Positions 15,101-62,577 of a DNA stretch of 64,000 nt are shown here, piece by piece. Under the pieces are notes generated by a model. That model ran no database searches, was not told the origin of the DNA, and saw only the letters and a list, made by a program, of their open reading frames with translations. The number at the start of each line of letters is the position of its first letter. Positions within the stretch are counted from its first letter, which is position 1. This DNA is from Leucoraja ocellata. Taxonomy: Eukaryota. Where the stretch lies: the NCBI GenBank assembly GCA_036785375.1, contig JAWMAR010000023.1, forward strand, positions 11,284,001 through 11,348,000, given 5' to 3'. The translations under genes and the position numbers were made by a program.

Positions 15101-18100
15101 TGTCCCTGGTGATCCAGCAAACAAGAATTGGTTCTTCACTTTCAGTTTACCAAGGTTTGCCACAATCAGCTGATTTGATTTGGAGCTTTCTGGGATGAGG
15201 ACGACTGGAGCACCAGCCTCAATGTCGAGCAGGATCCGAGAGGCCCTCTGTGCCTTGTCTCGCACCTAGATTCCCCAAAGCAAGTGGGGAGGGCGAGAGA
15301 AAATAAATTAGTGACGACCATAATAAACAAAATCAGAAATTTTTGAAATCTTGAAAAACTGAAAATACTGCAAATATAGGTTTGGTAATGCATTTGAAGA
15401 GGAAAGACAGATATACATTCTAAGTATAATCCTTCATTGAAACATTAAGTTTCAACTCTTCTTATGGCATTTACACAAACCATGCTTCCCACTCTCACTG
15501 ATAAGGTCAGCTTCATAACAGCATATCTTGTGCTGTGTCTTGTCTAATCATGTGGTATTCAAATCATAGCCTGCAGGCAAACCTATAATCGGCAAACCTA
15601 ATGATTTTGATTTCAGTTACCTTCATTTAAAAGGTCTGAATTACACAAGTCAAGAGCTGATCAAAGACTATTCTTACCACCGTGGCCTTTTTGCAGAACC
15701 ATCTAAATCTTGCTCGCTTTAATTTATTGTCTTGTCTCTACATTATTTCTACTGGCTCCTCAAGACCTACACCTCAGCAAGAAAGTCTGTTACTTTCCTC
15801 CATCAATCAGCTCTGTTCAAGTTGAGAACCCCTCCACTTTACTGCTATTTATGTCACCTAATGAAACTCATTTGAGTATTTCCATTTTATCTCTAGAAAG
15901 CACCAGACTTTTCTATTTTAATTAATGGCTTCATTATAAATAATCTTAAACTCAAATTCACTCCATTTGAGCAGGAACAGTGGTGGAACAGTAGCTGGCG
16001 AAATTGTCAGATTATGTGTTTCTTTTGAATCTGGCTTTGATTGCTCTTCTTACTCTATACACTCCTCACAACTTGCTAACCACCCATTCTTGTATCATCT
16101 GCAAATTTAGTTGAGTTCAGTCTCTTCAAACCCTGTAATCAAGTCAATTTGATTACAAATAGTTGGCGTCTTACCACTGACCCCTTTTAAGAGTTATGAT
16201 GCAAGTTCGAAGATAGACACAAAAAGCTGGAGTAACTCAGCGGATCAGACAGCATCTCTGCAGAAAAGGAATAGAACAGAAGACCCTTCTTCAGACTGGG
16301 GCTCTCCACTTCAGAGATGCTGTCTGACCCGCTGAGTTATTCCAGTTTTTTGTGTCTATCTTCGGTTTAAACCAGCATCTGCAGTTCCTTCCTACACATA
16401 AGATGCAAGTTCTCTCAGCACAAGTGACCAATCCAGCATTCTGCAGTTTCAAGTGCTGATTAGTAGAATACAGGGATGACACCAGTGCTAACCGGTTATC
16501 ATAATCTGTTTAATCAACACGTTAGCATTTTAAACAGCTGAGCAGGAAATCAAACAGACAAGCAATAGTAATTGCCAAAAAATCCAATAATTTAAAATCA
16601 CAGCTTTTCAGTTCAACATCACTTTTAGTGTTACTTTTAATTAACAGTAAAGTCTGCTAAGAAACAATTATGTTGGGCTCATTTTTAAAGTATATGGCCA
16701 AACAAATTGGTGAATGTACTAGTACAAATGACAGCATGGGGGCTTTACATGCAGGCATTTGTGTGCTAATTTATGTAGACTATTCGACAGAATTCAAAGG
16801 GCCAGCAAGCACCTTATACAATTCATCAAGTAAGATCTTGATTAGCTTTTGTTTCAAAGACACTGCTATGTCATCTTGCTTCTGAGTGAATACTATGGAA
16901 AAACACAAGGACGCCCATTCTGCTGCACAATCCAGCAAATCAATGGTATTTTTTTAAATGTTTAAGAGGGAACTGCAGATGCTGGAGAATCGAAGGTTAC
17001 ACAGAAAAGCTGGAGAAACTCAGCGGGTGCAGCAGCATCTATGGAGCGAAGGAAAATTTCCTTCGCTCCATAGATGCTGCTGCACCCGCTGAGTTTCTCC
17101 AGCTTTTATGTGTATTTTTTTAAATGGTGACAGATTGGGAAATGTTGATGCTCAATAAGACCTGGGTGACCTTACAACAAGTTAGAAGTTAGTGCAAGTA
17201 CTGTCAGCAGTTAGATGGCATATTGCAAAATAATTTTGGCAGAGGAGAAAGAGGTCCTATTGCAATTTAATTGGGCCTCGGTGAGACTGAACAGTGAATA
17301 TTGCGCACAGTTTTAGTCTCCTTAATTAAAAGGTAGTATGTATTTGTTATAGGAGGAGTGCAGTACAGATTTATTTGATAAGATCCAGGGATGGAGATTC
17401 TGTGGTAGGAGAAAATAAGTACAATAATTCTGTATTTTCTAGAATTGTAGAACGCAGGAATGGATGCAGGGAGGATCTTCCCTTGGCTGAAAAGTTTATA
17501 TTTAAGGATCATAGTTGCAGAATAATGGGTAGGTTTTTTAGGACTTCATTGAGGACATATATTTACTCAGCAAGTGCTGCATCTTTGGAAGGGCAGTGGA
17601 AGCTCGTTCAAAACTGTGATTGATAGATTTCTGATTATTAGGAGTATGAAAGGATCAAAAGAAATTGCAGGAAATGTAGCTAAGGTAGAGGTTAGCTGTG
17701 ACCGCCATCAGTGTGCGTACTGGAACAGATTAGCTACGGCTAACATGTCTGGTTAGCACATTTTCATCACTGCATCTGGAATGTTGTCCAGTCCTACAGC
17801 CTTTGCAATATTACAAGATAAATCACCCACTCAACACTTCAAACTGAACGTGGATACCAATGTTTCAGTCTCGTCTTTGCCACTCTCATGCTGGACGTTT
17901 CCACCATCGATAGGAATGTGCTTGGAGCTACCTCCTCCAGCTTTGATGAAATGGCCATGACACGAGTTAACCACATATGCTGTGTTTGTGACAACACGAA
18001 AACCCGGGGTGGCATCTGATTTGATAACTTTTCTGTAAACAGCTTACCGCTTGTCCCTCTACAGCTGCTCTCTGTCTCCCCAGTACATCCTGCAGCTGTG

Positions 18101-21100: not shown

Positions 21101-24100
21101 CAATTTTATCTGTTTTCATAACCTGAATGTCAGAGTAACTAATTACAGCCAAACCATTTGTGAGGATTCTCAGCATGAATAATGTGCCCGGTCTTTTTTT
21201 GTTATTTTAGTGCAATATTCTTGATCGTAGTTCTAACAGAGGTTGGATGACACCTACTGGTGGAACTTTACTTTTCAAAATGCAGAGCCACAGCACAAAA
21301 GTTACATGGTGTAAGAAGGAACAGCAGATGCTGGTTTAAACCGAATATAGACACAACATGCTGGAGTAACTCTGCGGGACAGGCAGCATCTCTGGAAAGA
21401 AGAAACGGGTGATGTTTCGGGTCAAGACCTGTCTTCAGAAGGGTGATCCTTCATCTGAAGAAGGGTCTCGACCCGAAACGTCACCCATTCCTTCTCTCCA
21501 GAAAGGTTATATGGTGTCCCTTAAAGGCACCATATAAAACAACTGGATATGCTGATACAAAAGGTTATTTGTTAAGTTATTAGAATGGGGAAAAGATAAA
21601 AATGGTTAACAAATGTTTTAATGGATGTGGGTCAGGATGATCACATTGCAGGCATATTTATCCTTCAGGCAGAGGTTGAAGACAGGTGTTACTTGAACTA
21701 TCTGGAATGGGTGTGGAGAGATACTGCTATTTGTCTTGTTTGAGTGGAGTCCAAACATCACTCATTGTGATCAAGACATGAAACTGTCCTGTACACATTT
21801 GTCCAAGGATGTCTCTGCCACCAGGAGAGGAGTAATGGCGAGTGCTAGACGACATGGTGTAACGGTATGAATTTAACTTTCTTTTTAAAAGAGGTCACTA
21901 AAACTACAACAGTGTAGTGATCATGACATATGCATCTCATATACTAATATCATAAACTCTGTATCTAATTATAAATCCCAAAATCTGTTATTATTTCATT
22001 TGTTGTGTTATAAACCTGTCATTCATTACATGTAACATAGAAACATAGACATAGAAACATAGAAATTAGGTGCAGGAGTAGGCCATTCGGCCCTTCGAGC
22101 CTGCACCGCCATTCAATATGATCATGGCTGATCATCCAACTCAGTATCCCGTACCTGCCTTCTCTCCATACCCTCTGATCCCCTTGGCCACAAGGGCCAC
22201 ATCTAACTCCCTCTTAAATATAGCCAATGAACTGGCCTCAACTACCCTCTGTGGCAGAGAGTTCCAGAGATTCACCACTCTCTGTGTGAAAAAAGTTCTC
22301 CTCATCTCGGTTTTAAAGGATTTCCCCCTTATCCTTAAGAATTTATGATTGATCACCCTTGGATCATCTTGCTATTCCATTCAATTCAGCCTCTTTCCAT
22401 CATGTTTATAATATTCTTTATTTTATTTGCTCCTAAATTGTATTACTAGATGCAATACATTACCTATCACTCTTTATAACCTTGAGAAATTGTTCATAAT
22501 TTTTTCTGAGTGGTTACCCCAATTTTGGCCAATTTCAATACCTCTCACTCTACAAATTTTTACTGCTATTTTTTTTCTAAGTCTTTAACAGTGGAAGAAG
22601 CAACAATTTGGCCCATCAAGCCAGTACTATTGTTAATTTAATTTAATCCATTGTTTATGCATCTGAAGGTCAATAAAATACAAATGCTGCCAAACTGCCT
22701 TATAAAAGTTTTCCTGGAACACAAACTACAACAGTCTTTTAGATAATGTGTTCCAGATCTTAACTAGTTTCTGTGTGGAAATAGATTCTTCCCCCTTTTT
22801 TGCAAATAATTTTAAAACCATGATGTCTAGTCTCTGACCCATTGGTTAAGAGTTTAATTTTCAGCTCTGCTGAAATCTTTCTCCTAACTATATTTTTGGA
22901 ATGCCTTCTTTTAATCTATGTATTTTCAGACTGTTACGTTGGCTTTATAAATACTGGATTTTTTTATTTTTTTTAAATAAGCCAATTTTTTAAAATAGTG
23001 TCTTACATAGCTCCAAATGCTCACAAAAATGATCTTAAACTATGGATTCCAAAAGCTTGTCTACATTGGACTATCTAGTTCATCCTTTTTTTCCCCTTCC
23101 TGAATATTGATTTGGAAAATACATTAAGCACAACACAAAATGCAGGTAACTAAGCGGGTCAGGCCGCATTGTGAGGGATTGGATAGGTGACGTTTCGTGT
23201 CGGGACCCCACTTCAGTCTGGAGAAAGGTCTCAACCAGAAACGTCGCCTATCCATTCCCTCCACAGGTGGTGTCCCCCCTGCTGAGTTACTTCAGCACAT
23301 TGTGTTTTGCTTCGGGAAATACATTACTTTGTCATTGATGCTGCTGCAATTCATAGTGGATATTTTATTCATTTTGTTAATTACAGGACAAATGAATATG
23401 CAGAGACATGAGTAGCAATTCTCTGGCTCAAAGATGAAGAACAGATCAGGACATAACATTTGTCAGGCATTACATTTTGTCCATGTGGCATTTAATCCCA
23501 ACTGCAATGACTATGCATTCAGTCTTCGATCTTAGTATGTTTGACACATGTTTGACCCAGAATTCAAAAAATATACGAGCCTAGTAATCAGAACTTGCCT
23601 ATCAATGCAAGATGTGCTGCCAGTTTGGACACATTCGCTTTGGCGAGCTCGTTTGTCTTTTTGTTTAATACCAGAGACAGTGAGTGAACCTAAAAAGAAG
23701 AAAACAATTAACAAACTCGTATCGTGCAGGAAGGAACTGCAGACGCTGGTTTAAATCGAAGGTAGACACAAAATGTTGGAGTTAACTCAGCGGCACAGGC
23801 AGTATCTCTGGAGAGAAGGAATGGGTGACGTTTCGGGTCGGGACCCTTCTTCAGTGTGAAGAACCGACCTAAAACATCGCCTATTCCTTCTCTCCAGAGA
23901 TGCTGCTTGTCCCAACAAACTCAGATCGATGGACAACTACAGGCTGTCCATATTTTTGAAACTTTTTGAATTCTAAATACATATTTTAACACTTTGTTGA
24001 AATAAGCAGAGGGCGATTCATTGGTACAGGAATAATCAATTAAGGTAACTGTATTAGCAAGAGTTTTGTTTCAAGCCTGCAAACTTACCGAAATCATGCA

Positions 24101-27100
24101 AGATCGAGAAGTTATTTTTAGAAAAAGCACAATTAAGACTAAAGTTCTTATGATCTAAATTAACAAGACATGAGGAACATCAGGCTGGGCACCAGTGATA
24201 CAATCAATCAATCACAGTACAAGATCTAAACAAATTACATAGATACGGCACGGTAGCGCAGTGGTAGAGTTGCCGTCTTACAGCGCCAGAGACCCGGATT
24301 CGATCCCGACTACGGGTGCTGTCTGTACGGAGTTTGTACGTTCTACCTGTGACTGCGTGGGTTTTCTCCGAGACCTTCGGTTTCCTCCCACAATCCAAAG
24401 ACGTGCAGGTATGTAGGTTAATTGGCTTGGTAAATGTAAAAATTGTCCCTAGTGTGTGTAGGATAGTATTAATGTGCGGGGATCGCTGGTCGGCACGGAA
24501 CCTGTGGGCCGAAGGGCCTGTTTCTGCGCTGTATCTCGAAACTAAACTAATAAATTGTAGAATTGTTCATTCTCTGGGCTTAATGGGCACGCTACCTTCT
24601 AAGTGAACAGGGCAAACATCACACTGTCAGTTCACTGAGAACAAGCTCGAATAAATAAAATTCCTGGCATTCTTAGTTCTTCCATACTCTGCTGTATCTC
24701 TAAATCTTGATAATCCTTAAAACATTTTCACGAGTTTAAGCAAGACACAAGGGTGATTAGTTTTAACATGGCAAGATCTAGCATTAGACTTATGAAAATA
24801 GTCAGGGAATTGGTCTGTTGTAACAACTTGTCCCAAATACAGATGGATCTCGTATCATCAAAGATAGACACAAAAAGCTGGAGTAACACAGCGGGACAGG
24901 CAGCATCTCTGCAGAGAAGGAATGGGTGATGCTTCAGAAGAAGGATCTGAAGAAGGGTCAGGACCCGAAACGAGACCCTTTCCTTCTCTCCAGAGATGCT
25001 GCCTGTCCCGCTGAGTTACTCCAGCATTTTGCGTCTATCTTCGATTTAAACCAGCGTCTGCAGTTCCTTCCTACACAGATCTCATATCATCAGCTGGGTA
25101 AAGGGCCTGTCCCACTTCACGACCTAATTCACGACCTTTTTGACTCGTGGACTTGATGCCACGAGTACCTACGACTAGCATCACGGCCTGCTACGACCGC
25201 GTGACGGCCATGCAGCGAGTATGAGACAAGGGCAAACTCGGCAGAGGTCGTGAAAGTGGGACATGCCCTTAAACTTACAAAGACTTGCCCTTAAACTTAC
25301 AAAGACTTCATTTGAATACTAGAGTAGTTTGATGGCAGGAGCAACCCACTTAGAATGTCAAAAGTCTATTTCAAGAGAGAGAGAGAGTCAATTTAATTGT
25401 CGTTTGGACCTCCAGGGGTCCAAATGACAATTAAATTGACTCTCTCTCTCTTGAAATAGACTTTTGACATTCTAAGTGGGTTGCTCCTGCCATCAAACTA
25501 CTCTAGTATTCAAATGAAGTCTTTGTTAAATGGGAAACAATGTAATGGGAAATGAGAAACGTATTCAAATCAGTCTTAATCGTATTAATCAGTCGTTGTT
25601 ATTGACATTGCAGGTAATTCGCATCATAGCAAGAAAAGACAACAAAAATCAAATACCTTCAGGTCTAACTTTGTGTTGACTGGTTCCTGGCCTGCATTAT
25701 ATGGAGCACCAGCTTCATCAGGTTGCATCTGAGGTTGAGGCTCCTCCACTGGAGGTTTCAAGCCATGGTTGTTGGCTGTTGATCCAATCCCAAAAAAATC
25801 CAAGATCATTACCCAGGTCTGAAGTGTAATCAGCACATCCAAGCAGTTAAAATCTACATCCACATTCCTGTTCACTTTACTGTAACGTGTAGAAAATTCA
25901 GGGTGCTTCCTATCTACCAGAAAAATATTAATATGTACTAATGAATCGTCAAAGTTAGTTCTGGTGCAGTACACCTTGGAGGTTTTCAGTATTGGGGATG
26001 GTGGAGGGGTCAGAAGACGTTCTGCATCTTGATCTTCCTTATGTTTTCTGCGTGTAGATGACGGCCTTTGGTAAAACTGGAAGACATTTTGTGCTTCTTC
26101 CATGTGAGCTGGCAGGGATCTTGGCATATCAGGATACTCCACATTGGAGATAGAAGGGCAAGACTGGGACAAATATTCCTTTTGATTGAAACTGGAAGCT
26201 TTTGGTGCTCCCCTCGACACCATTAAATGCTTGTACTTGGAGTCTGTTTTTTTCTCCAGCAAATCTTCCATTAGCAGTGACCGTAGAGCTACCTGAATAG
26301 ACAGAGTACAAGGCTGGTCTTTACTGAACTCAACTTCAAAGTCTTTAAACTTTAAACTAACCAAACCTTGTGCTTCCAAAGCAAGATCACCGCACAATTG
26401 AACCTGTAACTCAGAAATGCAGAAATTAGCCTGTATTTGAGTGAATGATTTTGACTCTGGAATCGGAAAGGAATCGACTGGAGTAGATGGATAGCTCATT
26501 CGACCGAAAAGTCCGCTCTCTTTCCATTCTCGTTGAAGATCGGCGATCTTCTGACTTCTCAATGGTGAAGAGACATGATGGGGGTCGGGCACGCCATCAG
26601 TTGAACCATGCGAGATATTGCCAAGATCGTCACTGTATGTTAGGTTATCCAATGTCTGCAAGACTTGCTCATAAACATGCTTTGCTAACATTACCTGCAG
26701 GATAAGGAAACAAGTTATTCCATCCATCTTGGTACAACAAGCATAGAGTGTATGTAAACACTCCTAACCAATTATGAGAATGGCAGGAACTTATGACAAA
26801 CAGCTGTCTATTAACCCTATCTTTTTCACTCTAAGAGATGCCACCTAACTTGCTCAATCTTTCCAATACTTTCAAATTTATTTATGAGGTTTTATAGATC
26901 CACACCTTAGAAGTTCAGTTTGATAGCCATAGATAGAAAAACAAATAGAGTCATGGGCTTTACAAATTGATGCAGGAAGTAAAAGAGCAAGAAGTCATGA
27001 TGAACATTATAGAACGTTGGTTCAGCCATAATTGGTGCATTGTACTGAGTTCTAAGTTTAAAAGAAGACACAGAAAAGATTTAGCAATGTGATTCCAGGG

Positions 27101-30100
27101 ATGTTGGACTTAAGTGTAAATGTTAGACAAGAGACAAGACAAGAGACATTTATTGTCACATGCACCAATTGGTCCAGTGAAATTTGTTAGAATTGATAGC
27201 AGAACAGGTTGTCTGGGGATCATATAAATATTTAAAATATTAACAGTATCGATATTGAGACATGGTTATCATTGACAGAGGGGTCAAGAACTAGTGGTGC
27301 AGAATAGAAATGACTGGCAAAAGAACCAAAATAAATGTGAGATAAACATGTTTATGCAGCAATGACTAAATTCTGGGTAGTTGTGGAGGCGGCGGCACAT
27401 TCAATAGTAGCATTCAAAAGGTATCTGAAAGGGAAGATTTTGCATGGATATGGGCAGAGGAAGCAGAGGGATAACAGAATTGCTCTTAGAAAGGGCTGGT
27501 ACTTTTTTTATTGGGTTGAATGTCCTCTTTATGTGCTGTAACTATCCTGTGATTTATATTTTCGGTCAATCCTTGACAACAGTAAGATCAACCATCAGTC
27601 TGAAAAAGGGACACGACCCGAAACATCGCCCATTTCTTCTGTCTAGAGATGCTGCCGCACCCACTGAGTTACTCCAGCATTTTGTGTTTACCTTCAGTAA
27701 GATCAACCAGGTATTAAACCTCAACAACAATTCTTTTCTTATTTCTATCCATTTGTCTATCATAAGTTTAGGCAAGAGTATACGAAACACATATTGTATC
27801 AAATTTACACTACTTGTGCTATCATTAATACAATGCAGAACTAAACTTTCAAATTATTAAATATTTGCCTGAACATAAGATGCAACAAACATTTAAAGGA
27901 ATAACTGGTAACAGTATTTTTTAGAGAATTTCAGACTAAATATAAAAGTCTTATGGATTGAGGAACAGTGACAGAGTCACATTATAAATCAATGGAACCT
28001 CTAATTACAAAGGATCAGAAAAAGTTTATTCAGTACAATCTTGTGAATGGTAAACTGCAGACAATACAGAAAAGTATTCACAACTACAACCTGCGATGGC
28101 ACGATCAATCTTTTACCTTCAAAGGATTGACAAATTTCCCCTCGATCTTCATTTTACTGGTGGTCTCAAAGGAATCCGAAAAGTTAACAGCTGGAAAGGA
28201 TGACCCGGGATCTGTCTCAACTGGGATTTTCTCTAGAACAAACTGGATTGTGGTGTCGTTCAAGATATGAAAGGCTGGAGAAAATAATATTAAAATATAT
28301 GATTATACAACTTCTGCCAAGTTTAGTTTTAGTTTTAGAGATACAGCGTGGAAACAGGCCCTTACGCCCACCGAGTCCGCATCAACCAACCATTAACACT
28401 ATCCTACACAAGGGACAATTTTTATATTAATACCAAGCCAATTAACCTACAAACCTGCACGTCTTTGGAGCGTGGGAGGAAACTGAAGATTTCAGAGAAA
28501 ACCCACAGTCATGGGAAAAACGCACAAACTCTGTACAGGCAGCACTTGTAGTCGGGACCGAACCCAGGTCTCAGACGCTGTAAGCACTGCAAGGCAGTAA
28601 CTCTACCGCTGCGCCACCTTGCCGCCCGTGGTGTTTAACTAATTTTTGTTCATTGGAGACACAAGAGATGGCAGATACTGGAATCCTGAGCAAAAAAACA
28701 AACTGCTAGTGGAACTCAGCAGGTCAGGCAGCATCTATGGAGGGAAATGGACAGATGACATTTCATCAGTCTGAAGAAGGGTTCTGAACAGAAACATCAT
28801 CTGCCCACTTCCCTCCACGGGGCTACTCGACTCATTGAGTTCCTCCAGCAGTTTGTTAAATTTAGTTAAGCATTGATTAGAATCCATCACTAATCCTTAA
28901 GTATTTCGCTTTAAAGGCAAATCTAAAAGTTCTTCCCAAATTTATCTGGATGGCAGATGGTCTGCAGTTAACTGAACCAAGCAGCCATTTTTCACTTGTA
29001 ACTGGCTGGAAGGAGGACATGAGGCCGGGGCAGATCAGTCATGGTCGTAGTGAATGGCAAGGCAGAGGAGGCTTGAGTGGCCAAGTGACCCACACCTGCT
29101 TCTATTTCCTTCAAGTACAGACAGCAATTTAAAGCCGAATAGACCACACCAAGTTAACCCTCTGTTCTCATCTACCATTCACATGTAACACAAGCCAAGA
29201 ATTATACCTGGCATCTTTTTCAGCTGGACAATTCACTTATACTCTTGGCAGTATATTGGTCCTCCGAGCCATGTAGATTTTTTTTAGTTTAGTTTAGAGA
29301 TACAGCGCGGAAACAGGCCCTTCGGCCCAATGGGTCTGCACCAACCAGCGATTCCCGCACATTAACACTATCTTACACCCACTAGGGACAATTGTTACAT
29401 TTACCAAGCCAATTAACCTATAAACCTGTGATTATTCATTTGTGATTCATTGTGATTAATCTGTGACTATTCATTTAAAAACAGGGACTTTGAACCGACC
29501 TTGACCATTGTGTATGGAATCAAAGAAATCCTGCCGTGTGAAATGCATTTCTTCCTGACTGGAGGTGCTGGCACCACCAGATGCCGATCGAGGAGATTCG
29601 CTGGCATCTGTCTTGGAACCACGCATGCTGTTATTGAGAGAGTACATTTTAATATCTTTAATTTCCACTTGCAGCCGGTCTCTCCCTGAATCATCTTCAC
29701 CGGTTACAAAGTTCTGGATTGACGTCCTGCCCAAGTGTCCAACCAACAGCTCACAGCTTCCTGGTTTCCGTGGGATTGCCACCACAGGTGACTCGATGTT
29801 GATGTTCAAGACTAATTTTACTGGGTTCTGTTCGGGAGCTTCCATCCCAGCAGCCACATCGTCATCAAGTTCAAACATATCCCTCGTCTTCCGTGGCTTT
29901 TCAAAAAGTAACACCATCTCGCTGTACTCGGCAGTTTTGTTTACCAAGACGGTGGAGACTTTGGAAGCTGCAGTCTTCAGCATATTTTGGAAGTTATCCT
30001 CAAGTTCATCCATGGATAAGGCGAGTTCCTTAAGGAATTTGGGCGAATGGTTATAATGTAAAGATGCCATGTGCAGACTCAATTTAAACTCTTCCTTTGA

Positions 30101-48100: not shown

Positions 48101-51100
48101 TACGTTTACTTCCAAGTCATTTATTTTCTATCACAAACAGCTGAGGTCCCAGCACAGAACTCCACTAGACATAGACCTTCAGCCTGAATACTGCCCCACC
48201 ACCACCACTGGTCACCTGGCTAGGCTCTTTTCTCAACACGAGGTCCAGTATGTTCCCTCCTCCGGCTGGACTACCCCATACTGTTTTGAGAAACCCTCTT
48301 GGATCAGCCTGACAAATTCTACCCTGTATAAGTCTTTGGCATTGAGCAAGTGTCTGTCAATCTTGGGGAAGTTAAAGTCACCCACAAAGACAACCATGTT
48401 GCTTTGATATCTTTCGGTAATCTGTTTACAACTCTGTTCCTCACTCCCACTTTCTCCTCTTTACCTAATCCCATCAGAGTGCATGCTTCTTTCTTGTTTC
48501 TAAACTACCGACATCGCCTCAGTGGACAAACCCTTCAGTGTGTCCACTATGAAGGCTGCTATGGCAGTCTCCAAGGGAGAATTGTGAATTATTTGTTGCC
48601 AAGATGAGAGTACAAGTAATCTGCGATGTAACAATACAGCAGCGTTGGTTCAGACTGGCTAAAACCAGTAGTATTCTCTACAATATTCCTTGTATTGAAA
48701 TAAACAAACTTCAGCCAATCAGCCTCACTTAGACTTGTTGGTTAGTTGACCGACATCCTCTGAGAACACCACTGTTTCAGAATATTAGTGTAATATGCAG
48801 AAGTAAATGATGGACCAAAACACTTACAAACAAGAGAATTTAACTTCCTCTAAATGACCCCTTACTCTCTTATTTTTGGTTCAAACTGCCTTACCTGCGA
48901 AAGTTTCAATGGAATTGTCTTCAGGTTGACATCACACTCAATGCGCGGTGTATTCCGGGAACGCAAGGGCTCTTTGGCTCCGTTTCTCTTTAAAAGTGCA
49001 GAAGCGCAGACAGGTTCGAGTATGTACTTGTGATCTCTGTTTTGCAGGCAATGATCTATTGCATCCTGGAAAGTAATAAAGATGCGTGAGATCCAAATAT
49101 ACTTCCCTTCACCCTCAAGCAAATAGTTTCCAAGCTTAGTCAGAACGGTTCTTCATAGAATCAAAGTCAAAGGTTATATTTTTAATGATCAGGGAAAATC
49201 TCAGCAACTATTTTTATTGGAAATTCTCACCCAATAATACAAAAAAAAACCGATCTCAGCTAAGTTTTAGTTATAGGTAGACAAAAAATGCTGGAGAAAC
49301 TCAGCAGGTGAGGCAGCATCTATGGAGAGAAGGAATCGGCGACGTTTCGGGTCGAGACCCATCTTCAGTCTGAAGAAGGGTCTTGACCCGAAACATCGCC
49401 TATTCCTTCTCTCCATAGATGCTGCCTCACCCGCTGAGTTTTTCCAGGTATAAGTACATATCTGGCTTGAGAACCATTGGAAATTAAAAAAAACTATTTT
49501 ATTTCTGGAATATATATTTGGAGTAATTCTCTAAATATTTCCCCAGTAGGTATAATTAAAAGGGTTGACAGGCGATTTGGGTGTCGCAGGGGAGAATATT
49601 ATGGTGCTCCATATTTGTCCTGTCAGCCATACCATCATTATGGATCAATTCTATAAGATACTAATTATAAAGGCTAGTAGCACACCAGAGACAAGATTTT
49701 AAATTATATCATGTCAGAACCAGGCTAATAATTCAAGAGGCATGGGCTCCAGGCTTGTTTAGGCACACCCTCAAAACATCACCATGTTGTGAAGTGCATG
49801 AAGAAATTAAGAAACAGAATATTTATGTATTAATAAATCACCGACTCCCAACATCGCGGAGCTGGGGCTGCAGGCGTCCGGCCGTGGGCGGCGCCGGTTG
49901 TAGCTCCGACCCCGGCAACTCTACCCCTGGCTGCGCGGCGCTCCAAATCCAGCGCGATGTTGTGTGTCGGCGGCCACAGCACTCCGGAGCTTACCGCACG
50001 GCGACCCAGTAAGGCATTGCCCGCTCCCCGCTGGTATCCCAGGGCTGCGACGCTGCCGACTCCCAACATCGCGGAGCTGGGGCTGCGGGCGTCCGGCCGC
50101 GGGCCACGCTGGATTTGGAGTGCCGCGCAGCCAGGGGTAGAGTTTCCGGGGTCGGAGCTCCAAGCGGCTCCGCCCGCGGCCGGACGCCCGCAGCACCCAG
50201 CTCCGCGATGTTGGGAGTCGGCGGCCACAGCGCTCCGGAGCTTACTGCACGGCGACCCGGTAAGGCATTGCCCGCTCCCTGCCTCTCTGACCAGGTAGGG
50301 GACTAAGAATTAAAGTTTCCCCCTTCCACCCCCCCCCCCCCCCACCACATAAAATCCCTCCAAACTAACTGACTAACATTTAAGCAATGATTTACAACGA
50401 TTCCCCGGTCTCCGGGGAGGAGGCAGCCACTCCAGACTTTTCAAGCCGCCCGCGCTACCTACCTAATCTACGCTAAAAATCTTCCATTCAGAAATCCGAA
50501 AAATTCCGAAATCCGAGAAGTGTCTGGTCCCAAGGCTTTCGGATAAAAGGTTGTGCACCTGTAGTATCAAAGTGGCGAATGATTCATTGAAGTCCAAGTA
50601 AATAAAACTCATACCTGGAGTTCAGAAGGAGGAACATCGCCCAGTAACTCGGTGTCCATATCCCAGTAAATACTGAAATCCTCAATTTTTAATCTCTTTT
50701 TTCTTATGGACTTCTCAACCTCAGAATAAAAGAAAAATGTGGTAAGTAAAGCAATAGTATCAATGTTGTGGGGGATTACTTTAGTTGCAAAGAAATTTGC
50801 AATTGTTCACAATTTTATCCTATCAGTGTTGTTTCTCCTAAAGTGCAATGGATTCCCCATTCACCTTTAACCAAGACCGCTAAACTCTATACAGATACAA
50901 ACAATCCTTTCCCTTCTCGAACTGATCTCCTGGTTATGTTAGAAAAACAAGAAACAGCAGATGCTGGTTTACTAAAGAATGCATAAACTGCTAGAGAAGT
51001 GCTAGAGTAACTCTGGTGCTAGAGTTAACGGGTTGCTATCATGAAAGTTATAGTATGTATGTATAGAATGTATAAGTGGCAGATAAATGTTTACAAGAAC

Positions 51101-60100: not shown

Positions 60101-62080
60101 GATTCAGTTACCTCCCAAACTTTAAAGAACAAAAATCAGGCTTTGCTTAAAAAATGCACACCTGAAATAAAACACATGCAAACACATTATGCCACTCAAT
60201 ATGCACTTCATGTAATATTATTTATCAACCAAAGTGTTCAAATGCAGTCACACTTCTCTTATAGTTCATCCACCACCACCTAAATGACATCTTCTGACCT
60301 GCCCTCAATGTTAAACTTTCTTATCTGCTCAAATAAATTATTGTTTTAATTATTTCACTAAATTCAGGTTTCTTTCACAACTTCTATAACTTCCTGGGCC
60401 TCATGTAGTCCATGCTCACCATCAATCACCCATTCACATTATGTTCAAGAAGGAACTGCAAATGCTGGAAAACCGAAGGTAGACACAAATGCTGGAGAAA
60501 CTCAACGGGTGCGGCAGCATCTATGGAGCGAAGGAAATACGCAACGTTTTGAGCCGAAACCCTTCTTCAGACAGAAGAAGGGTTTCAGCCCAAAAAGTTG
60601 CCTATTTCCTTTGCTCCATAGATGCTGCTGCACCCGCTGAGTTTCTCCAGCATTTTCTTTCTACCCATTCACATTAGTTCTTGGTTATCGCACTTTCTCA
60701 TCCACTCCGACACACTAGGGGCAATTTTACTGATTAACCTACAAACTATCATCTTTGCGATGTGGGAGGAAAGCAAACGCTGGGGGAAAACCCATGTGGT
60801 CTAGGGCAACTTGTAATCCCCCCACACAGACTGCACCCTAAGTCCGGATCAAACTGGCTATGACACCAAAGTACTTTAATCAATCAGATTTAAAATTTTG
60901 TGATAACCCTAATTTGTTCCTGCCACAAGCAAACGACAGAAAACAAATAGCATTTCACTCTGATGCTTTACAGGGCAAAGCTATAAAGGATAAATCTACT
61001 GTTGCAATGACGTATGTTATACGAGTCAAATGGGTGGAGGACAAGAAATGTCATACACACCCTATTTGTTTTAAAATAATCCTTACATACAAGTAGTAAC
61101 GTCTTGGAATTCTTATACTTATAATTTCTTATAATCAATGATGCCATAACAATCAGATCACTCTAAAGTCACCTTGTTGTGGAGTTCCTCAGAGTTAAGA
61201 CATCAGCTCCCCTCCCACACAAACCACAATAATTTTAATGTAGATCAGTTTTAATTCTGAACCTAATATCAGGCCAGTCCATCTACTTTTCTCAATGAAT
61301 TTCAAAACCTCGTCTGCCACTCAGGATAGTGGAAATTAACATAACAGTAGAAATATCTGATTGGGGTTAACCATTCCTAAACACAGAGGCAGGCAGAGGA
61401 TAACAGTGAAACCACATGTTTACATTCACGAGGACATGACGTGTTTCTCTTAATATTTAATAATAGCACGCAGGAGCTTATTGAGAGGAAAAGTACAGCT
61501 TAAGAATAAGGGGTAGGTCATTTAGAACTGAGACGAGGAAAAACTTTTTCACACAGAGTTGTGAATTTGTGGAATTATCTGCCTCAGAAGGCAGTGGAGG
61601 CCAATTCACTGGATGTTTTCAAGATAAAGTTAGATATAGCTCTTAGGGCTAATGGAATGAAGGGGTATGGGGAGAAGGCAGGAACGGGGTATTGATTGTG
61701 GATGATCAGCTATGATCATATTGAATGGCGGTGCTGGCTCGAAGGGCCGAATGGCCTACTCCTGCACCTGAGGTCTATGTACAGATATCAGAGTGGTTCA
61801 CACCCCCCCCCCCCCCCCCCCAAGGTCACTGATCCAATGGTTCTGATTAATAAACACACTTTAACAGGGCTGCATTTGATTATATACTTAAAGCCCACGC
61901 GTTCAATAGCGATTTATTACTGAAATATTCACTACTACAGAGCCGGGTGACAGGTTAAAAAAAGTTTCTGAAGTTGCAAGTACCTTTCATCAGGGCAATG
62001 GAGAGCTGGTCTGTGTTGAGGTTATTGACATATTTGCCAATGTAAGTGTTTAGCACCCAGGCTGCCAGTCCCTCCAGCAT
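17..62080 (-). CDS. VPS13D: VPS13D bridge-like lipid transfer protein, coding exons 1-32 (partial, continues beyond position 1)
   Basis: Starts [40 protein letters not shown] (chorein-N). 32 exons join in frame with matching phases, 2588 codons. Peptides such as QYLQSWFPGWGGWYG, SDDEYKTPLATPP and YLSQSCPS recognised as VPS13D. Confidence 0.97.
722..855 (-). CDS. VPS13D: VPS13D coding exon 31 (134 nt)
   Basis: cacag|GT; GTEFVVVEDMSCHDTNAVILKATTVLTYKPRLVDRPFSGSLGGIE; |gtaaaa. Confidence 0.95.
1813..2075 (-). CDS. VPS13D: VPS13D coding exon 30 (263 nt)
   Basis: cccag|G; STRDASCFTVVLNNLRVFVIFDWL...LEVKINVT; G|gtaaaa. Confidence 0.94.
2365..2850 (+). mobile_element. Rex1/Babar LINE 3' fragment (degenerate)
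   Basis: Peptide LLTSGRRCRRL...NSFFSSTIRLLN followed by an AT-rich 3'UTR. Confidence 0.75.
2944..3939. mobile_element. Non-autonomous TIR DNA transposon, 17-bp TIR, 5-bp TSD TACTT
   Basis: gtagcaatgttacaaaa / ttttgtaacatacctac (2 mismatches); TACTT at 2939-2943 and 3940-3944; interrupts a CR1 3' tail. Confidence 0.85.
3576..3635. repeat. Tandem triplication of ~20-bp gccccatttaatgtaaa(a)gaa inside the TIR element
   Basis: Read directly from the sequence. Confidence 0.9.
4221..4433 (-). CDS. VPS13D: VPS13D coding exon 29 (213 nt)
   Basis: ttcag|G; FDFKKSKLLYESFSNTTKSVNLVSHSMMAHDTR...QMELHY; AG|gtgaca. Confidence 0.94.
5278..5393 (-). CDS. VPS13D: VPS13D coding exon 28 (116 nt)
   Basis: ctcag|; TVLTGEVYTNMSFLIDMMNVSLEL...SLA; AG|gtattt. 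Confidence 0.94.
5700..5942 (+). mobile_element. CR1/HER1 LINE 3' fragment
   Basis: ...tggaatgcattg...gtggtggaggcag...gggccagagggcctgtt...ttctatgtt tail. Confidence 0.7.
6154..6325 (-). CDS. VPS13D: VPS13D coding exon 27 (172 nt)
   Basis: ctcag|G; EISHAVPDMAIHGSLSSVHCSLDLGKYKLIRGLIQNNLGEPIEEFMRPFDLQDPSIH; |gtaagt. Confidence 0.95.
7034..7244 (-). CDS. VPS13D: VPS13D coding exon 26 (211 nt)
   Basis: tttcag|AA; EEHICLLDCIVVDLQDMDIFTAERHPRE...LQVERNLD; AA|gtaagt. Confidence 0.94.
7445..7679 (-). CDS. VPS13D: VPS13D coding exon 25 (235 nt, poorly conserved linker)
   Basis: tgccag|; EPANFPSEE...ELKESE; G|gtaata; open frame with required phase 0 to 1. Confidence 0.8.
7905..8058 (+). mobile_element. 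CR1 LINE 3' tail
   Basis: gatcagccatgatcatatt...ggctcgaagggccgaatggcct. Confidence 0.8.
8651..8771 (+). mobile_element. Penelope-like terminal fragment (degenerate hammerhead core)
   Basis: ctggagaaaggtcttgacctgaaacatc...gttactccagc. Confidence 0.65.
8773..9092 (-). mobile_element. HE1-type tRNA-derived V-SINE
   Basis: tRNA-like head, V-domain core, (taaac)n HER1-type tail. Confidence 0.85.
9137..9230 (+). mobile_element. Old Penelope-like terminal fragment
   Basis: ctgaggaaggg...tgaaa...gctgcttga...ctgagttcttgcagc. Confidence 0.5.
9486..9620 (+). mobile_element. Penelope-like terminal fragment
   Basis: cagtctgaagaagagc...aaaac...gtgctgcctgacccattgagttcctccagc. Confidence 0.65.
11189..11310. 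repeat. Inverted repeat of Rex1/Babar-type 3' tails (47-bp arms, 15-nt spacer)
   Basis: 11189-11235 vs 11251-11297, 2 mismatches; each arm contains tgacaataaa plus (attct)n. Confidence 0.85.
12420..12720 (+). mobile_element. Rex1/Babar LINE 3' fragment
   Basis: PHHPGY...LLSGRRHRSLKTVSSRLRNSFFPTAIRLLN. Confidence 0.8.
15083..15265 (-). CDS. VPS13D: VPS13D coding exon 24 (183 nt)
   Basis: tctag|; VRDKAQRASRILLDIEAGAPVVLIPESS...GTFSLRDK; |gtaaaa. Confidence 0.94.
16209..16398. mobile_element. Penelope-like fold-back pair, 14-bp TSD
   Basis: Inverted arms; tatgatgcaagttc (16195) / taagatgcaagttc (16399). Confidence 0.8.
16961..17111. mobile_element. Penelope-like fold-back pair lacking the hammerhead, 15-bp TSD
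   Basis: Near-perfect palindrome centred on ggaaaatttcc; gtatttttttaaatg at 16946 and 17112. Confidence 0.85.
17130..17720 (+). mobile_element. Degenerate CR1 LINE ORF2 3' part
   Basis: gacctgggtg...gcctcggtgagact...gaatattgcgcacagttt...ggagtgcag. Confidence 0.65.
18048..18228 (-). CDS. VPS13D: VPS13D coding exon 23 (181 nt)
   Basis: actag|A; YGRADPKLQRDCDVRVSFQMASVQYVHTQRFQAEVVAFIQHF...EGQA; |gtaagc. Confidence 0.94.
18791..19086 (+). mobile_element. HE1-type V-SINE (older subfamily)
   Basis: tRNA-like head; gtgtggagtttgcacgttctccc core; gggctgaagggcctgttt tail. Confidence 0.8.
19741..19867 (-). CDS. VPS13D: VPS13D coding exon 22 (127 nt)
   Basis: tatag|AT; DGDFALHGSLGSLSLSDLTSHGELYRERFTTSGKEALVFNIY; AA|gtatgc. 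Confidence 0.94.
21313..21502. mobile_element. Penelope-like fold-back pair with intact minimal hammerhead core, ~15-bp TSD
   Basis: CTGAAGA-A-GGGTC-TC-GACCC-GAAAC-GTC at 21455-21482; aaagttacatggtgt / aaggttatatggtgt. Confidence 0.82.
22034..22340 (-). mobile_element. CR1 LINE 3' end (young)
   Basis: LRIRGKSFKTEMRRTFFTQRVVNLWNSLPQRVVEA...; (tttctatg)n tail. Confidence 0.9.
23127..23313. mobile_element. Penelope-like fold-back pair, 13-bp TSD
   Basis: Junction cttcagtctggag; ggaaaatacatta (23114) / gggaaatacatta (23314). Confidence 0.75.
23599..23689 (-). CDS. VPS13D: VPS13D coding exon 21 (91 nt; GC donor)
   Basis: tttttag|; VHSLSLVLNKKTNELAKANVSKLAAHLALI; TAG|gcaagt. Confidence 0.9.
23725..23913. 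mobile_element. Penelope-like fold-back pair, ~15-bp TSD, 35 nt from the exon 21 acceptor
   Basis: aacaaactcgtatcg (23710) / aacaaactcagatcg (23914); minus-strand core ctgaagaagggtcccgacccgaaacgtc. Confidence 0.8.
24247..24550 (+). mobile_element. HE1-type V-SINE, full length
   Basis: A box ggtagcgcagtggt, B box gattcgatccc, V domain, HER1-like tail. Confidence 0.9.
24861..25077. mobile_element. Penelope-like fold-back pair, 15-bp TSD
   Basis: gatctcgtatcatca (24846) / gatctcatatcatca (25078). Confidence 0.82.
25102..25269. mobile_element. PIF/Harbinger-type MITE
   Basis: TIR agggcctgtcccacttcacgacct / aggtcgtgaaagtgggacatgccct; TAA on both sides. Confidence 0.8.
25264..25307. repeat. 22-bp tandem duplication tgcccttaaacttacaaagact
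   Basis: Read directly from the sequence. Confidence 0.9.
25299..25526. repeat. Near-perfect ~110-bp-arm palindrome with 6-nt loop
   Basis: 25299-25410 vs 25417-25526; one substitution and one AG-unit difference. Confidence 0.95.
25657..26694 (-). CDS. VPS13D: VPS13D coding exon 20 (1038 nt)
   Basis: ctgcag|GTAATG; VMLAKHVYEQVLQTLDNL...YLSQSCPS...NTKLDLK; |gtattt. Confidence 0.95.
26950..27545 (+). mobile_element. Degenerate CR1 3' region, interrupted by a minus-strand Rex1/Babar tail at ~27125-27190
   Basis: gaagtcatgatgaac...gttggttcagcca...; tttattgtcacatgcacc...gtgaaatt. Confidence 0.55.
27595..27694 (+). mobile_element. Single Penelope-like terminal fragment, perfect 15-bp TSD
   Basis: cagtaagatcaacca at 27580 and 27695; insert begins tcagtctgaaaaaggg. 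Confidence 0.85.
28117..28274 (-). CDS. VPS13D: VPS13D coding exon 19 (158 nt)
   Basis: ctccag|CC; AFHILNDTTIQFVLEKIP...KIEGKFVNPLK; |gtaaaa. Confidence 0.93.
28321..28627 (-). mobile_element. HE1-type V-SINE
   Basis: Reverse complement of the 24247 family. Confidence 0.88.
28655..28857. mobile_element. Older Penelope-like fold-back pair
   Basis: ggaactcagcaggtcaggcagcatc...cagtctgaagaaggg...gagttcctccagc. Confidence 0.7.
29281..29430 (-). mobile_element. HE1-type V-SINE, 3' half
   Basis: tttagagatacagcgcggaaacaggcccttcggccc. Confidence 0.85.
29500..31719 (-). CDS. VPS13D: VPS13D coding exon 18 (large exon, 2220 nt)
   Basis: Lies within the 783-aa ORF; tacag|AT (DEPK...) to ...SIHNGQ G|gtcggt; contains SDDEYKTPLATPP. 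Confidence 0.95.
32234..32366 (-). CDS. VPS13D: VPS13D coding exon 17 (133 nt)
   Basis: accag|; ENDKRWMMKLDISAPQVIFPDDF...DLGRILLTNFR; G|gtaatt. Confidence 0.95.
32393..32715 (-). mobile_element. HE1-type V-SINE, tail next to the exon 17 polypyrimidine tract
   Basis: Full head, core and tail. Confidence 0.88.
33554..33684 (-). CDS. VPS13D: VPS13D coding exon 16 (131 nt)
   Basis: cctag|GC; GFGYQSELELRVADAARKQYNKLKMQTKAEIRQTIDQLLVGEFI; |gtaagt. Confidence 0.95.
33779..34090 (-). mobile_element. L2-clade LINE 3' end
   Basis: (gtcaa)n, tttatttctatagcac...ccaaagtgctttaca, gagttttaagtctcgacttaaa. Confidence 0.7.
34480..34685. mobile_element. Penelope-like fold-back pair
   Basis: ...cttcgggtccagactgaagaagggtcgcgacctgaaacgcc... 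Confidence 0.78.
35109..35288 (-). CDS. VPS13D: VPS13D coding exon 15 (180 nt)
   Basis: tacag|CT; PVFEMIYEKNP...TRPLNIIYNPLVIKKVADFFYKGKVHTS; G|gtcagt. Confidence 0.92.
35445..35850. mobile_element. Penelope-like terminal sequences (longer plus-strand pLTR piece, core at ~35730)
   Basis: cacctgtatccatctatcac...cggtctgaagaagggtcccgacccaaaacgcc... Confidence 0.65.
36250..36325 (-). CDS. VPS13D: VPS13D coding exon 14 (76 nt)
   Basis: taacag|; ENDAASLSQTLGMRSTLSETANVNP; CAG|gtgagg. Best candidate supplying the required phase 0 to phase 1 change; peptide weakly conserved. Confidence 0.82.
38243..38373 (-). CDS. VPS13D: VPS13D coding exon 13 (131 nt)
   Basis: ttccag|GA; GVKIGVESSPR...LGGLFLRDMAAQGSLFPVLVSPKP; |gtaggt. 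Confidence 0.9.
39618..39800 (-). CDS. VPS13D: VPS13D coding exon 12 (183 nt)
   Basis: gtcag|AT; DGDEIFNTMTDTSNLNTFTRRDHVFIKLNF...VELEFS; G|gtaatt. Confidence 0.92.
40150..40372 (+). mobile_element. Degenerate CR1/HER1 3' end
   Basis: tggaatgggctgccagg...ttggtcagcatggatgagttggaccaaaggcc. Confidence 0.65.
42320..42539 (-). CDS. VPS13D: VPS13D coding exon 11 (220 nt)
   Basis: gacag|; KLREPP...SGMIQYLQSWFPGWGGWYG...WSPEESL; G|gtatga. Confidence 0.92.
43484..43585 (-). CDS. VPS13D: VPS13D coding exon 10 (102 nt)
   Basis: ttcttag|; EELERIEDEQSFEELEILREIVFEQFKKHDILAE; |gtcagg. Confidence 0.92.
43823..43991 (-). CDS. VPS13D: VPS13D coding exon 9 (169 nt)
   Basis: tag|T; NSREWWNFALNANLAEIREQR...LEEE; |gtaatg. 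Confidence 0.93.
44900..45188 (-). mobile_element. Penelope-like element, GIY-YIG endonuclease C-terminus plus 3' region
   Basis: Manual translation QPDLPVAQHFNSPSHSESDL...LEEQHLIFCLGSSHPSGMNIDFSNFR* (stop 45002-45004). Confidence 0.85.
45190..45790 (-). mobile_element. Degenerate CR1 reverse-transcriptase fragment
   Basis: Remnants VTSSVSQ, KLPDDTKI, LAFTSWGIEYRSLDIMIQL. Confidence 0.75.
45502..45998. repeat. 63-bp direct repeat (45502-45564 and 45936-45998)
   Basis: One mismatch between the copies. Confidence 0.9.
46238..46338 (-). CDS. VPS13D: VPS13D coding exon 8 (101 nt)
   Basis: ctcag|; VQYQQLMTFLKEMERKERQLQLRKWRPKVPIKL; AA|gtaagt. Confidence 0.92.
47005..47102 (-). mobile_element. 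Penelope-like terminal fragment
   Basis: gatgtttctggtcgggacccttcttcagac. Confidence 0.65.
47345..48430 (-). mobile_element. Degenerate CR1 ORF2 with nested Rex1/Babar 3' tail (~47525-47720)
   Basis: EVMMQLYRTLVRPHLEYC..., FADNTKI; tail (caata)n tttattgtcatttgagcctcagtgaggctcaaa. Confidence 0.75.
48895..49065 (-). CDS. VPS13D: VPS13D coding exon 7 (171 nt)
   Basis: ttccag|; DAIDHCLQNRDHKYILEPVCASALLKRN...IPLKLSQ; |gtaagg. Confidence 0.93.
49277..49447. mobile_element. Penelope-like fold-back pair, hammerhead cores on both strands
   Basis: gacgtttcgggtcgagacccatcttcag|tctgaagaagggtcttgacccgaaacatc. Confidence 0.85.
49838..50561. mobile_element. Tc1/mariner (Tigger/pogo-like) element end with GC-rich internal repeats
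   Basis: Terminus ggtcccaaggctttcggataaaaggttgtgcacctg|TA; other TIR not found; internal inverted repeat 49841-49954 / 50107-50221. Confidence 0.65.
50615..50719 (-). CDS. VPS13D: VPS13D coding exon 6 (105 nt; GAG acceptor)
   Basis: ttttattctgag|; VEKSIRKKRLKIEDFSIYWDMDTELLGDVPPSELQ; |gtatga. Confidence 0.88.
51292..51408 (-). CDS. VPS13D: VPS13D coding exon 5 (117 nt)
   Basis: tag|; LNVRDVHLRFEDDITNPEHPFAFGICIKSVSVQNAEDEL; |gtaagt. Confidence 0.93.
53046..53188 (+). mobile_element. HE1-type SINE 3' half inside an old LINE remnant (~52960-53550)
   Basis: taattggcctctgtaaattgcccctagtgtgtag...aagggcctgt. Confidence 0.7.
53782..53862 (-). CDS. VPS13D: VPS13D coding exon 4 (81 nt)
   Basis: ttccag|; SDQQQKGESYWYSATASMVTRIVENVE; |gtgagt (not in ORF track). 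Confidence 0.93.
55425..55665 (+). mobile_element. CR1 LINE 3' end
   Basis: cagagttgtgaatctgtggaattctctgcctcag...ggctcgaagggctgaatgg. Confidence 0.85.
57067..57257 (-). CDS. VPS13D: VPS13D coding exon 3 (191 nt)
   Basis: cag|GT; GFIGKITLQIPFYRPHVEPW...LEAKWK; AAG|gttggt. Confidence 0.93.
57645..57722 (-). CDS. VPS13D: VPS13D coding exon 2 (78 nt)
   Basis: tag|GC; [26 protein letters not shown]; G|gtaag. Confidence 0.95.
57977..58963 (+). mobile_element. Rex1/Babar LINE, 5'-truncated, uninterrupted RT C-terminal ORF (stop 58759), (gaatt)n tail
   Basis: VPQGCVLSPLLYSLFTHDC...KFADDT...KAQQRLYFLRRLKK...LPSGRRYRS. Confidence 0.92.
59040..59625 (+). mobile_element. Degenerate CR1/HER1 3' region interrupted at 59154-59287
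   Basis: tctggtcaccctactata...gaggtttataaaatcatgaggg...tggatgagttgg. Confidence 0.7.
60442..60662. mobile_element. Penelope-like fold-back pair, 14-bp TSD
   Basis: acccattcacatta at 60428 and 60663; junction cttcagacagaagaaggg. Confidence 0.82.
60700..60850 (-). mobile_element. Degenerate HE1-type SINE core
   Basis: cactaggggcaatttt...ttaacctacaaac...gtgggaggaaa. Confidence 0.6.
61499..61778 (+). mobile_element. CR1 LINE 3' end
   Basis: Same family as 22034 and 55425; gtacag on both flanks. Confidence 0.88.
61984..62080 (-). CDS. VPS13D: VPS13D coding exon 1 (97 nt)
   Basis: gccATG Kozak context; [13 protein letters not shown]...ALMK; donor AAG|gtac. Confidence 0.95.
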
Positions 62081-62550: not shown

Positions 62551-62577
62551 CATTCATGGCACAACAGGACTCCTAAA

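Follow-up and report, generated by a model that had tools for sequence, protein, structure and literature searches.

A 64,000-nucleotide stretch of the Leucoraja ocellata genome (assembly GCA_036785375.1, contig JAWMAR010000023.1, positions 11,284,001 to 11,348,000; hereafter the window, numbered from its first letter) carries ten short fold-back insertions, and raises the question of what these hairpins derive from and how two inverted arms come to be inserted together. We found that they represent the terminal repeat (pseudo-long terminal repeat, pLTR) of a ~3.95-kb Penelope-like element (PLE) encoding a reverse transcriptase (RT) and a GIY-YIG endonuclease (EN), and that the window family follows a known Penelope insertion pattern, reduced to stub size. 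For the bulk of the hairpins we favor, with a probability of about 0.68, a reading as dead-on-arrival pLTR insertions, in which cDNA would be primed on each target strand, run off at the RNA start, and be joined head to head (twin priming); the ends, arms, 5' barrier, junctions and centre base of the copies, together with in vitro work on an Anolis element (PMC11167929), point to this reading.

A preliminary description of the window, made from its letters alone, had listed the ten fold-backs, and all ten were found, with lengths of 150-221 bp. It had also reported direct repeats around seven hairpins (those at 16209, 16961, 21313, 23127, 23725, 24861 and 60442) and around a single copy at 27595; these repeats (13-16 bp) were recovered with a target-site duplication (TSD) score of ≥9 (≤2 mismatches), which was reached by only 5 of 1472 mismatched flanks used as a control, and they support insertion of each hairpin in a single event. 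The same scoring (≤2 mismatches) showed no direct repeats above background for the copies at 28655, 34480 and 49277. The hairpins had further been regarded as two inverted copies of one terminal sequence; the copies are indeed inverted, but the arms are not equal, as usually only one of them carries a tail of ~33 nt. All five subfamilies of the stub family are present in the window. The fold-backs, the single copy and one hammerhead core are as follows.

16209..16398, fold-back stub of the ~10%-diverged subfamily, short-end arm left and tailed arm right; TSD 16195-16208 / 16399-16412
16961..17111, fold-back stub of the youngest subfamily, tailed arm left, no ribozyme core (junction downstream of the hammerhead); 15-bp TSD 16946-16960 / 17112-17126
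21313..21501, fold-back stub, tailed arm left, right arm short, 14-nt insert at the junction; TSD 21297-21312 / 21502-21517 with 2 mismatches
21455..21482, + strand, minimal hammerhead core with intact boxes; helix I only 1 bp in this copy
23127..23313, an old fold-back stub from the ~15% subfamily whose junction is symmetric (TCAG-T-CTG); TSD 23114-23126 / 23314-23326
23725..23913, fold-back stub whose left arm has the tail and, on the - strand, an intact core (23827-23854); TSD 23710-23724 / 23914-23928 with 2 mismatches
24861..25077, fold-back stub, tailed arm right; TSD 24846-24860 / 25078-25092
27595..27694, + strand, a single stub that starts at the TCAGT barrier and stops at the short 3' end; exact 15-bp TSD 27580-27594 / 27695-27709
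28655..28857, the oldest of the fold-back stubs, from the ~21% subfamily; no TSD above background
34478..34689, fold-back stub with the tail on its left arm and 5 nt of microhomology at the junction; no TSD above background
49271..49456, fold-back stub of the ~8% subfamily with a symmetric TCAGTCTGA junction and, at 49341-49368, a core on the - strand; no TSD above background
60442..60662, fold-back stub of the youngest subfamily, tailed arm left, symmetric junction with a central A; exact 14-bp TSD 60428-60441 / 60663-60676

Copies were identified with a 427-position DNA profile built from natural copies, on which the stop of the open reading frame (ORF) lies at 190, TCAGT at 292-296, hammerhead position C3 at 297, the cleavage site after 324, a short 3' end near 394 and the tail end at 426. 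Statistics refer to a sample of the same genome (864 kb, later 1.264 Mb) that was chosen regardless of repeat content and includes 464 kb of contig C23 around the window. The profile matched 614 times in the first 864 kb and never in the reversed sequence; in 1.264 Mb, 762 matches covered 76 kb, i.e., ~6% of the sample. Neighbouring pairs were head to head in 154 cases as compared to 13 tail to tail. TSDs had a modal length of 13-15 bp, with no evident targeting of microsatellites among them, and a TSD score of ≥10 was reached by 32/106 pairs and 35/281 single copies, as compared to 0/393 and 0/399 controls. The five subfamilies had median divergences of 21, 15, 10, 8 and 5%.

The Penelope origin proposed for the hairpins, and the contiguity of their repeat with a GIY-YIG ORF, were borne out by natural copies of the coding element. 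A coding remnant of the window led to 19 other loci, and in 18 of these the pLTR followed the ORF end on the same strand, beginning ~105 nt past the stop. Three of four ORF pieces matched the Pfam GIY-YIG family (E 1e-4 to 2e-3, one of the three above the curated cut-off), and two of three proteins matched RVT_1 (E 5e-6 and 2e-5, below the cut-off), with no match for the third. A CX4CxxC linker between RT and EN and two cysteines inside GIY-YIG were present (residues 454 and 494 of the L187 frame; also in L076). As the treatment of PLE clades in PMC8557442 gives a CX2-5CxxC linker as a Neptune mark that is common to Nematis, the parent appears to be a Neptune-type PLE, placed by a motif that Nematis also has. 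At 21 of 29 loci of the ORF 5' region (some of them duplicates), the pLTR and tail continued directly into the 5' leader, and tandem units were spaced 3,946 and 3,985 bp apart; the tail end thus lies in the interior of a ~3.95-kb tandem unit. Long ORF-bearing copies (L186, L189 and L193) showed the same inverted arm and one-sided tail as the hairpins, with TSDs of 13-14 bp in L186 and L193, and the hairpins therefore represent the short end of a continuum. Both coding remnants noticed in the window match a natural ORF copy:

44922..45191, - strand, parent remnant with the GIY-YIG ORF end and 3' untranslated region (UTR), cut before the hammerhead; 72% identity over 45008-45190, E 2e-20
62513..62647, + strand, parent ORF remnant, RT thumb region; 48% identity, E 3e-10

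Several coding copies showed features of their own. In L186, a near-full-length copy, the ORF is interrupted by a short stub of the same family (oriented positions 3034-3170), and L198 holds more than 20 pLTR fragments in both orientations, densely placed around one ORF copy. Five near-identical loci (L252, L253 and L256-L258) carry a chimeric inverted pLTR before a full leader and probably represent segmental or satellite-like amplification. The 3' UTR (element positions 187-295) opens with a GT that resembles a splice donor and closes, directly at helix I, with a pyrimidine tract and CAG, an arrangement also described for an intron of Drosophila virilis Penelope (PMC4209133). Splicing onto the ribozyme was considered and rejected, as a pattern joining the ORF end to the ribozyme matched two places, neither of which continued into an ORF; this join-pattern search thus found no spliced genomic copy of the 187-295 region.

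How the hairpins form is recorded, first, in their ends. The 3' ends of copies fall at two sites, ~394 and 426 of the profile and ~33 nt apart, with 163/379 single copies ending with the tail and 169/379 at the short site. The numbers of hairpins with both, one or neither arm tailed (3/88/35 of 126) differed significantly from the expected numbers (17.5/58.9/49.5; P = 3e-8), with an excess of hairpins that pair one end of each kind, and were 2/33/3 among TSD-validated pairs. The two arms of a pair were of one subfamily in 69/76 cases, and they had more non-consensus bases in common than permuted arms in the two best-sampled subfamilies (22% vs 9% and 44% vs 12%), with weaker sharing in the other three. 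The 5' ends were also concentrated: 262/596 lay at profile positions 290-298 and a further 100 at 299-307. These counts exclude 35 long singles, and because the consensus started at 290, that position also collects ends lying a little farther upstream. The accumulation at 290-298 includes 164/344 single copies without a fold-back, and among TSD-validated singles 36/38 have their start at 286 or beyond.

Among copies starting at 295, the preceding base was G in 13/24, as a cap would give, and Drosophila Penelope is reported to be transcribed from inside the upstream pLTR (PMC2377424); these observations lend indirect support to TCAGT as an RNA start site. Listed matches of the element included no RNA record, and three RNA read sets (possibly of other species) and one contig set, compared to a tandem copy, showed no shared start or end point. 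Most of these reads derived from stubs embedded in other transcripts, with 74-96% continuing into unlike sequence, and they are therefore uninformative on the start site. Run-off at the ribozyme cleavage site, a further candidate for the 5' ends, was rejected, since the excess of 5' ends at position 325 was not significant when singles were included (7 vs 3.9 for neighbouring positions; P = 0.10).

A second record lies in the junctions, of which 109 were distinct among 126 in the 1.26-Mb sample. The preliminary description had placed inversion breakpoints at TTCAG(T/A)CTGAA; they are indeed non-random and near the CUGA box, but symmetric TCAG(T/A)CTGA junctions account for only 11/126 in the sample (4/10 in the window). 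Other junctions lie at helix II or other short homologies, and 50/126 contain inserts of ≥5 nt, none of which recurs. A hairpin with a perfect junction had 1,683 exact matches genome-wide, spread over contigs C1-C9, and in the first 70 of these, of which 63 were scored, we determined which arm the centre base accompanies. It went with the tailed arm in 29 and with the tail-less arm in 27 (both arms tailed in 1, untailed in 6), and the ratio of tailed to tail-less was 27:25 after five duplicated loci were taken into account. A ratio of ~50:50 is what two cDNAs annealed across a central mismatch would leave, whereas a single snapped-back cDNA cannot tail the arm that it copies.

Under twin priming, the PLE protein would make a staggered cut of 13-15 bp and prime cDNA on each strand, and two short run-off cDNAs would be joined head to head. 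The two 3' ends may correspond to two internal RT start sites such as those known in vitro for the Anolis element, and the 5' barrier to the RNA 5' end at the initiator-like TCAGT, so that most copies would be run-off products. Joining would use whatever short inverted homology is available (TCAG/CTGA, helix II or the ACGT palindrome) or an untemplated insert, with the hammerhead as a passenger that, in a hairpin transcript, is predicted to be trapped within an extended duplex. The in vitro experiments described in PMC11167929 report that both target strands are cut and extended, that reverse transcription is initiated internally, at two sites that delimit the tail, that the protein is a predicted dimer, and that hammerhead mutants leave insertion unaffected.

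Several observations weigh against twin priming. Only about one third of the hairpins (the 32/106 above) have a detectable TSD. The variants shared by the arms could stem from later arm-to-arm conversion. The youngest subfamily shows a second 5'-end peak at 302-307, which the inherited junction treated below explains only in part, and when arms are taken alone, the cleavage site has slightly more 5' ends than its neighbours (5 vs 1.9; P = 0.04). Within one cassette lineage, a 4-nt hairpin loop is found in either orientation (14:16); loops can thus invert after insertion, which weakens the centre-base test. Finally, the element studied in PMC11167929 is described as belonging to the Poseidon clade, not to Neptune.

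The alternative for the bulk hairpins that fares best leaves the joining unchanged and explains the 5' barrier by RT stalling, or by template breakage, at a C-rich tract or at the folded ribozyme in a read-through RNA. A polymerase stall at the long C-rich tract directly 5' of TCAGT would give the same barrier, the 5' ends are spread over 290-307 rather than confined to one base, and 35/379 singles extend upstream. Conversely, copies that pass the barrier reach far into the ORF, three full-length-type copies (L247, L259 and L267) themselves start at 291-301, and both the excess of G before position 295 and the transcript starts within the upstream Drosophila pLTR (PMC2377424) fit an RNA start better than a stall. 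We consider this explanation unlikely.

Snap-back priming at the ribozyme, as proposed in the preliminary description, would have a cDNA begun at the tail end stall at the ribozyme, fold on TCAG/CTGA and copy itself, with the second arm trimmed at the short end by the endonuclease. Private variants common to both arms are what such self-copying would produce, the 11/126 symmetric junctions and the 1,683 exact matches lie at its quasi-palindrome, the tail is ascribed to EN-mediated resolution in the discussion of PLE insertion in PMC8557442, and later loop inversion could randomise the centre base. However, the 5' accumulation is equally strong in single copies without a fold-back, and the second arm ends at the same defined short 3' site as single copies (169/379 end there). 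In addition, 115/126 junctions are not symmetric at the site, 50 junctions have inserts of ≥5 nt, and 27 of the 56 hairpins with a perfect junction have the centre base on the arm without a tail. Snap-back is thus an improbable origin for these hairpins, and we retain twin priming for them.

The hammerhead motif itself was correctly recognized as a minimal type I motif: a descriptor matched exactly the three window copies claimed (21455 +, 23854 - and 49368 -), and in 1.26 Mb it matched 51 times within the family, with no match outside the family or in a reversed control. The core boxes, the extra base after position 9, G10.1-C11.1 and the palindromic 15.2-16.2 are all present. The boxes are unchanged in all five subfamily consensuses, and 112/282 copies that span the core keep it intact. 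Helix II is paired at four positions in 84-86% of copies; its only change, from U-A to U-G in the youngest subfamily, is one-sided, and no two-sided change was seen. Helix I, for which 4-5 bp were expected, has only 2 bp, followed by two mostly unpaired positions (10% and 16% paired) and two weaker pairs, and is reduced to 0-1 bp in the three window copies; a 2-bp helix I has been reported for D. virilis. An Rfam search proposed as a check did not return the motif, as no hammerhead family was among 22 matches with E up to 10, the matches being generic hairpin models below their gathering scores. Unconstrained folding of monomer or dimer gave no hammerhead fold, a result that is uninformative on activity. 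When folded, four window hairpins gave duplexes (-91 to -150 kcal/mol) in which the core was largely or fully paired, and on these models ribozyme activity within hairpin transcripts is unlikely.

Judged by its sequence, the motif is the known PLE minimal hammerhead, a putative ribozyme and not a new ribozyme class. It has in common with the PLE hammerheads described in PMC4209133 the CUGANGA and GAAA boxes, the extra base after position 9, G10.1-C11.1, the palindromic 15.2-16.2 and the lack of a loop 3, and differs from those described there in its short helix II (4-5 bp), its 2-bp core-adjacent helix I and, in the youngest subfamily, its GUU cleavage triplet. Pairs of minimal-hammerhead motifs on opposite strands, 100-700 bp apart, are already noted in the same paper.

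The preliminary description had also raised the possibility of a self-propagating hairpin, to be judged by whether copies share junctions. Two of the ten window junctions (24861 and 16961) were searched genome-wide: the former was unique with ≤2 mismatches allowed, and the latter had 3 exact matches, each with different flanks and variants. For the window copies, which include five subfamilies of different age, the proposal is thus not supported, and junctions in the sample are mostly independent (the 109/126 above). It holds for a minority lineage outside the window, in which one junction is shared and two derived cassettes have multiplied. This inherited junction, of the youngest subfamily and containing an untemplated base, was found 4 times in the sample and 2,164 times as exact matches genome-wide. 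Among the first 100 of these matches listed, 42 lay in C1:20.1-22.5 Mb, 50 in C5:14.3-18.2 Mb and 8 on C6, with none on C2-C4, and the 30 loci examined included derived cassette forms.

One of these forms, the C1 cassette, consists of 67-bp repeats of an older subfamily and lies inside old, individually decayed stubs (C1:20.1-22.6 Mb, L317-L351), with no TSD of its own; its marker had 62 exact matches, 36 of them in C1:20.1-22.0 Mb and none on C23. The other, the spacer cassette, contains a captured spacer of ~25 bp and had 268 exact matches; among the first 100 of these listed, 82 lay in C23:8.05-12.6 Mb (L354-L376), around but outside the window. Neither the inherited junction nor either cassette was found inside the window. 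The 39 spacer loci examined fell into 27 flank groups, of which about 9-10 had their own TSD, five on C23; this count is a lower bound, and among the 11 groups scored with a TSD one was a tandem-unit artefact and one doubtful. A distal haplotype occurred in 7/17 spacer copies as compared to 0/32 dispersed hairpins, with at least four distal haplotypes overall, and some spacer copies had arms of an older subfamily. Ordinary stubs showed no regional haplotype structure (permutation ranks of 52, 18 and 143 of 200), indicating that locality is specific to the cassette lineages. Part of the clustering reflects local segmental duplication with flanks in common, and clusters were located by contig, not by chromosome.

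These data suggest a second layer outside the window, in which cassettes based on the inherited junction would have spread within single regions through homology-driven copying into neighbouring stubs, likely the best explanation of the spacer and C1 forms. The competing account is true retrotransposition landing near its source, through nuclear, tethered RNA, rather than conversion of stubs. It draws on spacer cassettes with distinct flanks and their own TSDs (the five within C23 among them), with the usual one-tail asymmetry and with 5' ends at the usual barrier, and on two C1 copies 300 kb apart that share a private junction but have different TSDs. On the other hand, a converted stub would keep its original TSD, the C1 cassette sits without a TSD of its own inside old decayed stubs of older subfamilies, the spacer copies show at least four distal haplotypes and in part older-subfamily arms, and ordinary stubs lack regional haplotype structure; local retrotransposition is thus a possible but less probable source of the clusters.

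We consider it an even call whether, in a broader reading, stubs seed non-coding cassettes that spread themselves within a few Mb while bulk stubs record twin priming from two starts. A junction born once would then have been copied into neighbouring, even much older stubs, gaining the spacer or the 67-bp repeat and flipping its loop, and each chromosome region would have its own lineage, a locally homing parasite of repeats. A search by title and abstract opening, with most subscription papers and Repbase outside its reach, found no matching paper on regional spread or non-autonomous palindromes.

That the hairpins as a class are a self-propagating retro-MITE (a miniature inverted-repeat transposable element) copied whole from hairpin RNA is very improbable, for although one junction recurs 2,164 times, the spacer derivative has 268 exact copies with ~9-10 of 27 sampled flank groups bearing their own TSD, and a distal haplotype is linked to that derivative (7/17 vs 0/32; P = 2e-4), the window copies have individual junctions (that of 24861 being unique) in five subfamilies that are 5-21% diverged, 109/126 sample junctions are distinct, arm-specific differences recur at most 3 times among 30 young perfect-junction hairpins with several haplotypes, no excess of A-to-G strand skew, which hairpin-RNA editing would leave, was found, and the window contains neither the inherited junction nor either of the cassettes. 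An RNA-editing scar was also looked for in single hairpins and rejected, as A>G versus T>C changes per hairpin were not over-dispersed (69 elements; P = 0.92).

Compared to known systems, the hairpins most resemble the unit of EN-containing PLEs such as Adineta Pen2a which, in the accounts given in PMC3846280, PMC8557442 and PMC8969392, likewise has an adjacent inverted 5'-truncated copy, a 30-40 bp tail at one end, a TSD, partial tandems, microhomology or a palindrome at the junction and an initiator-like pLTR motif. Here, by contrast with those accounts, both halves are usually bare stubs of 50-135 nt that make up ~6% of the sampled DNA, and the sharp 5' barrier, the one-tail rule and the inherited, region-confined cassettes do not figure in the descriptions of that unit. 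The Anolis Poseidon element PAc, as presented in PMC11167929, has in common two internal RT starts bounding the tail, cutting and extension of both target strands, and a hammerhead upstream of the start sites that is dispensable for insertion; it belongs to another clade, and head-to-head joining of cDNAs and a genomic run-off barrier are not part of its description there. Non-LTR retrozymes, in the account of bioRxiv 10.64898/2026.07.22.740005, are also non-coding, derived from PLE terminal repeats and capable of local amplification, but form head-to-tail arrays with a ribozyme per unit, whereas the hairpins here are head to head and the 67-bp unit of the C1 cassette is missing the 5' half of the core, with the CUGA box and helix II.

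Further copies of the family in the window are mostly old single stubs:

8501-8773, 9084-9220 and 9485-9609, + strand, three more old single stubs
35451-35557 (- strand) and 35722-35842 (+ strand), two old stubs, head to head with ~165 bp between them
46991..47144, - strand, old single stub
50947..51015, - strand, weak old tail fragment
63475..63562, + strand, old single stub without hammerhead

Three other inverted repeats were observed in the window. A perfect 87-nt inverted repeat at 25299-25526, with apparent host flank in its arms and a short core with AG repeats, does not belong to the Penelope family and may have arisen by genuine snap-back. At 11189-11304, the end of a different repeat forms a 47-nt fold-back that bears a microsatellite-like tail and has one related single copy in the sample, and a GC-rich compound inverted repeat at 49841-50225, unrelated to the pLTR, has related copies on at least 4 other stretches.

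The origin of inverted ends and one-sided tails in PLEs is stated as open in the discussions of PMC8557442 and PMC11167929. With hundreds of stubs per Mb, this genome holds a countable record of these events, which fits two cDNAs primed on both nicks and gives sharp predictions for the existing in vitro system. The most surprising result is the regional confinement of the minority lineage. Its cassettes indicate that supposedly dead hairpins can become templates, through local conversion or local retrotransposition, and either route would affect the dating and annotation of these repeats. If part of the spread is retrotransposition, Penelope would insert beside its RNA source, which would fit its unexplained retention of introns.

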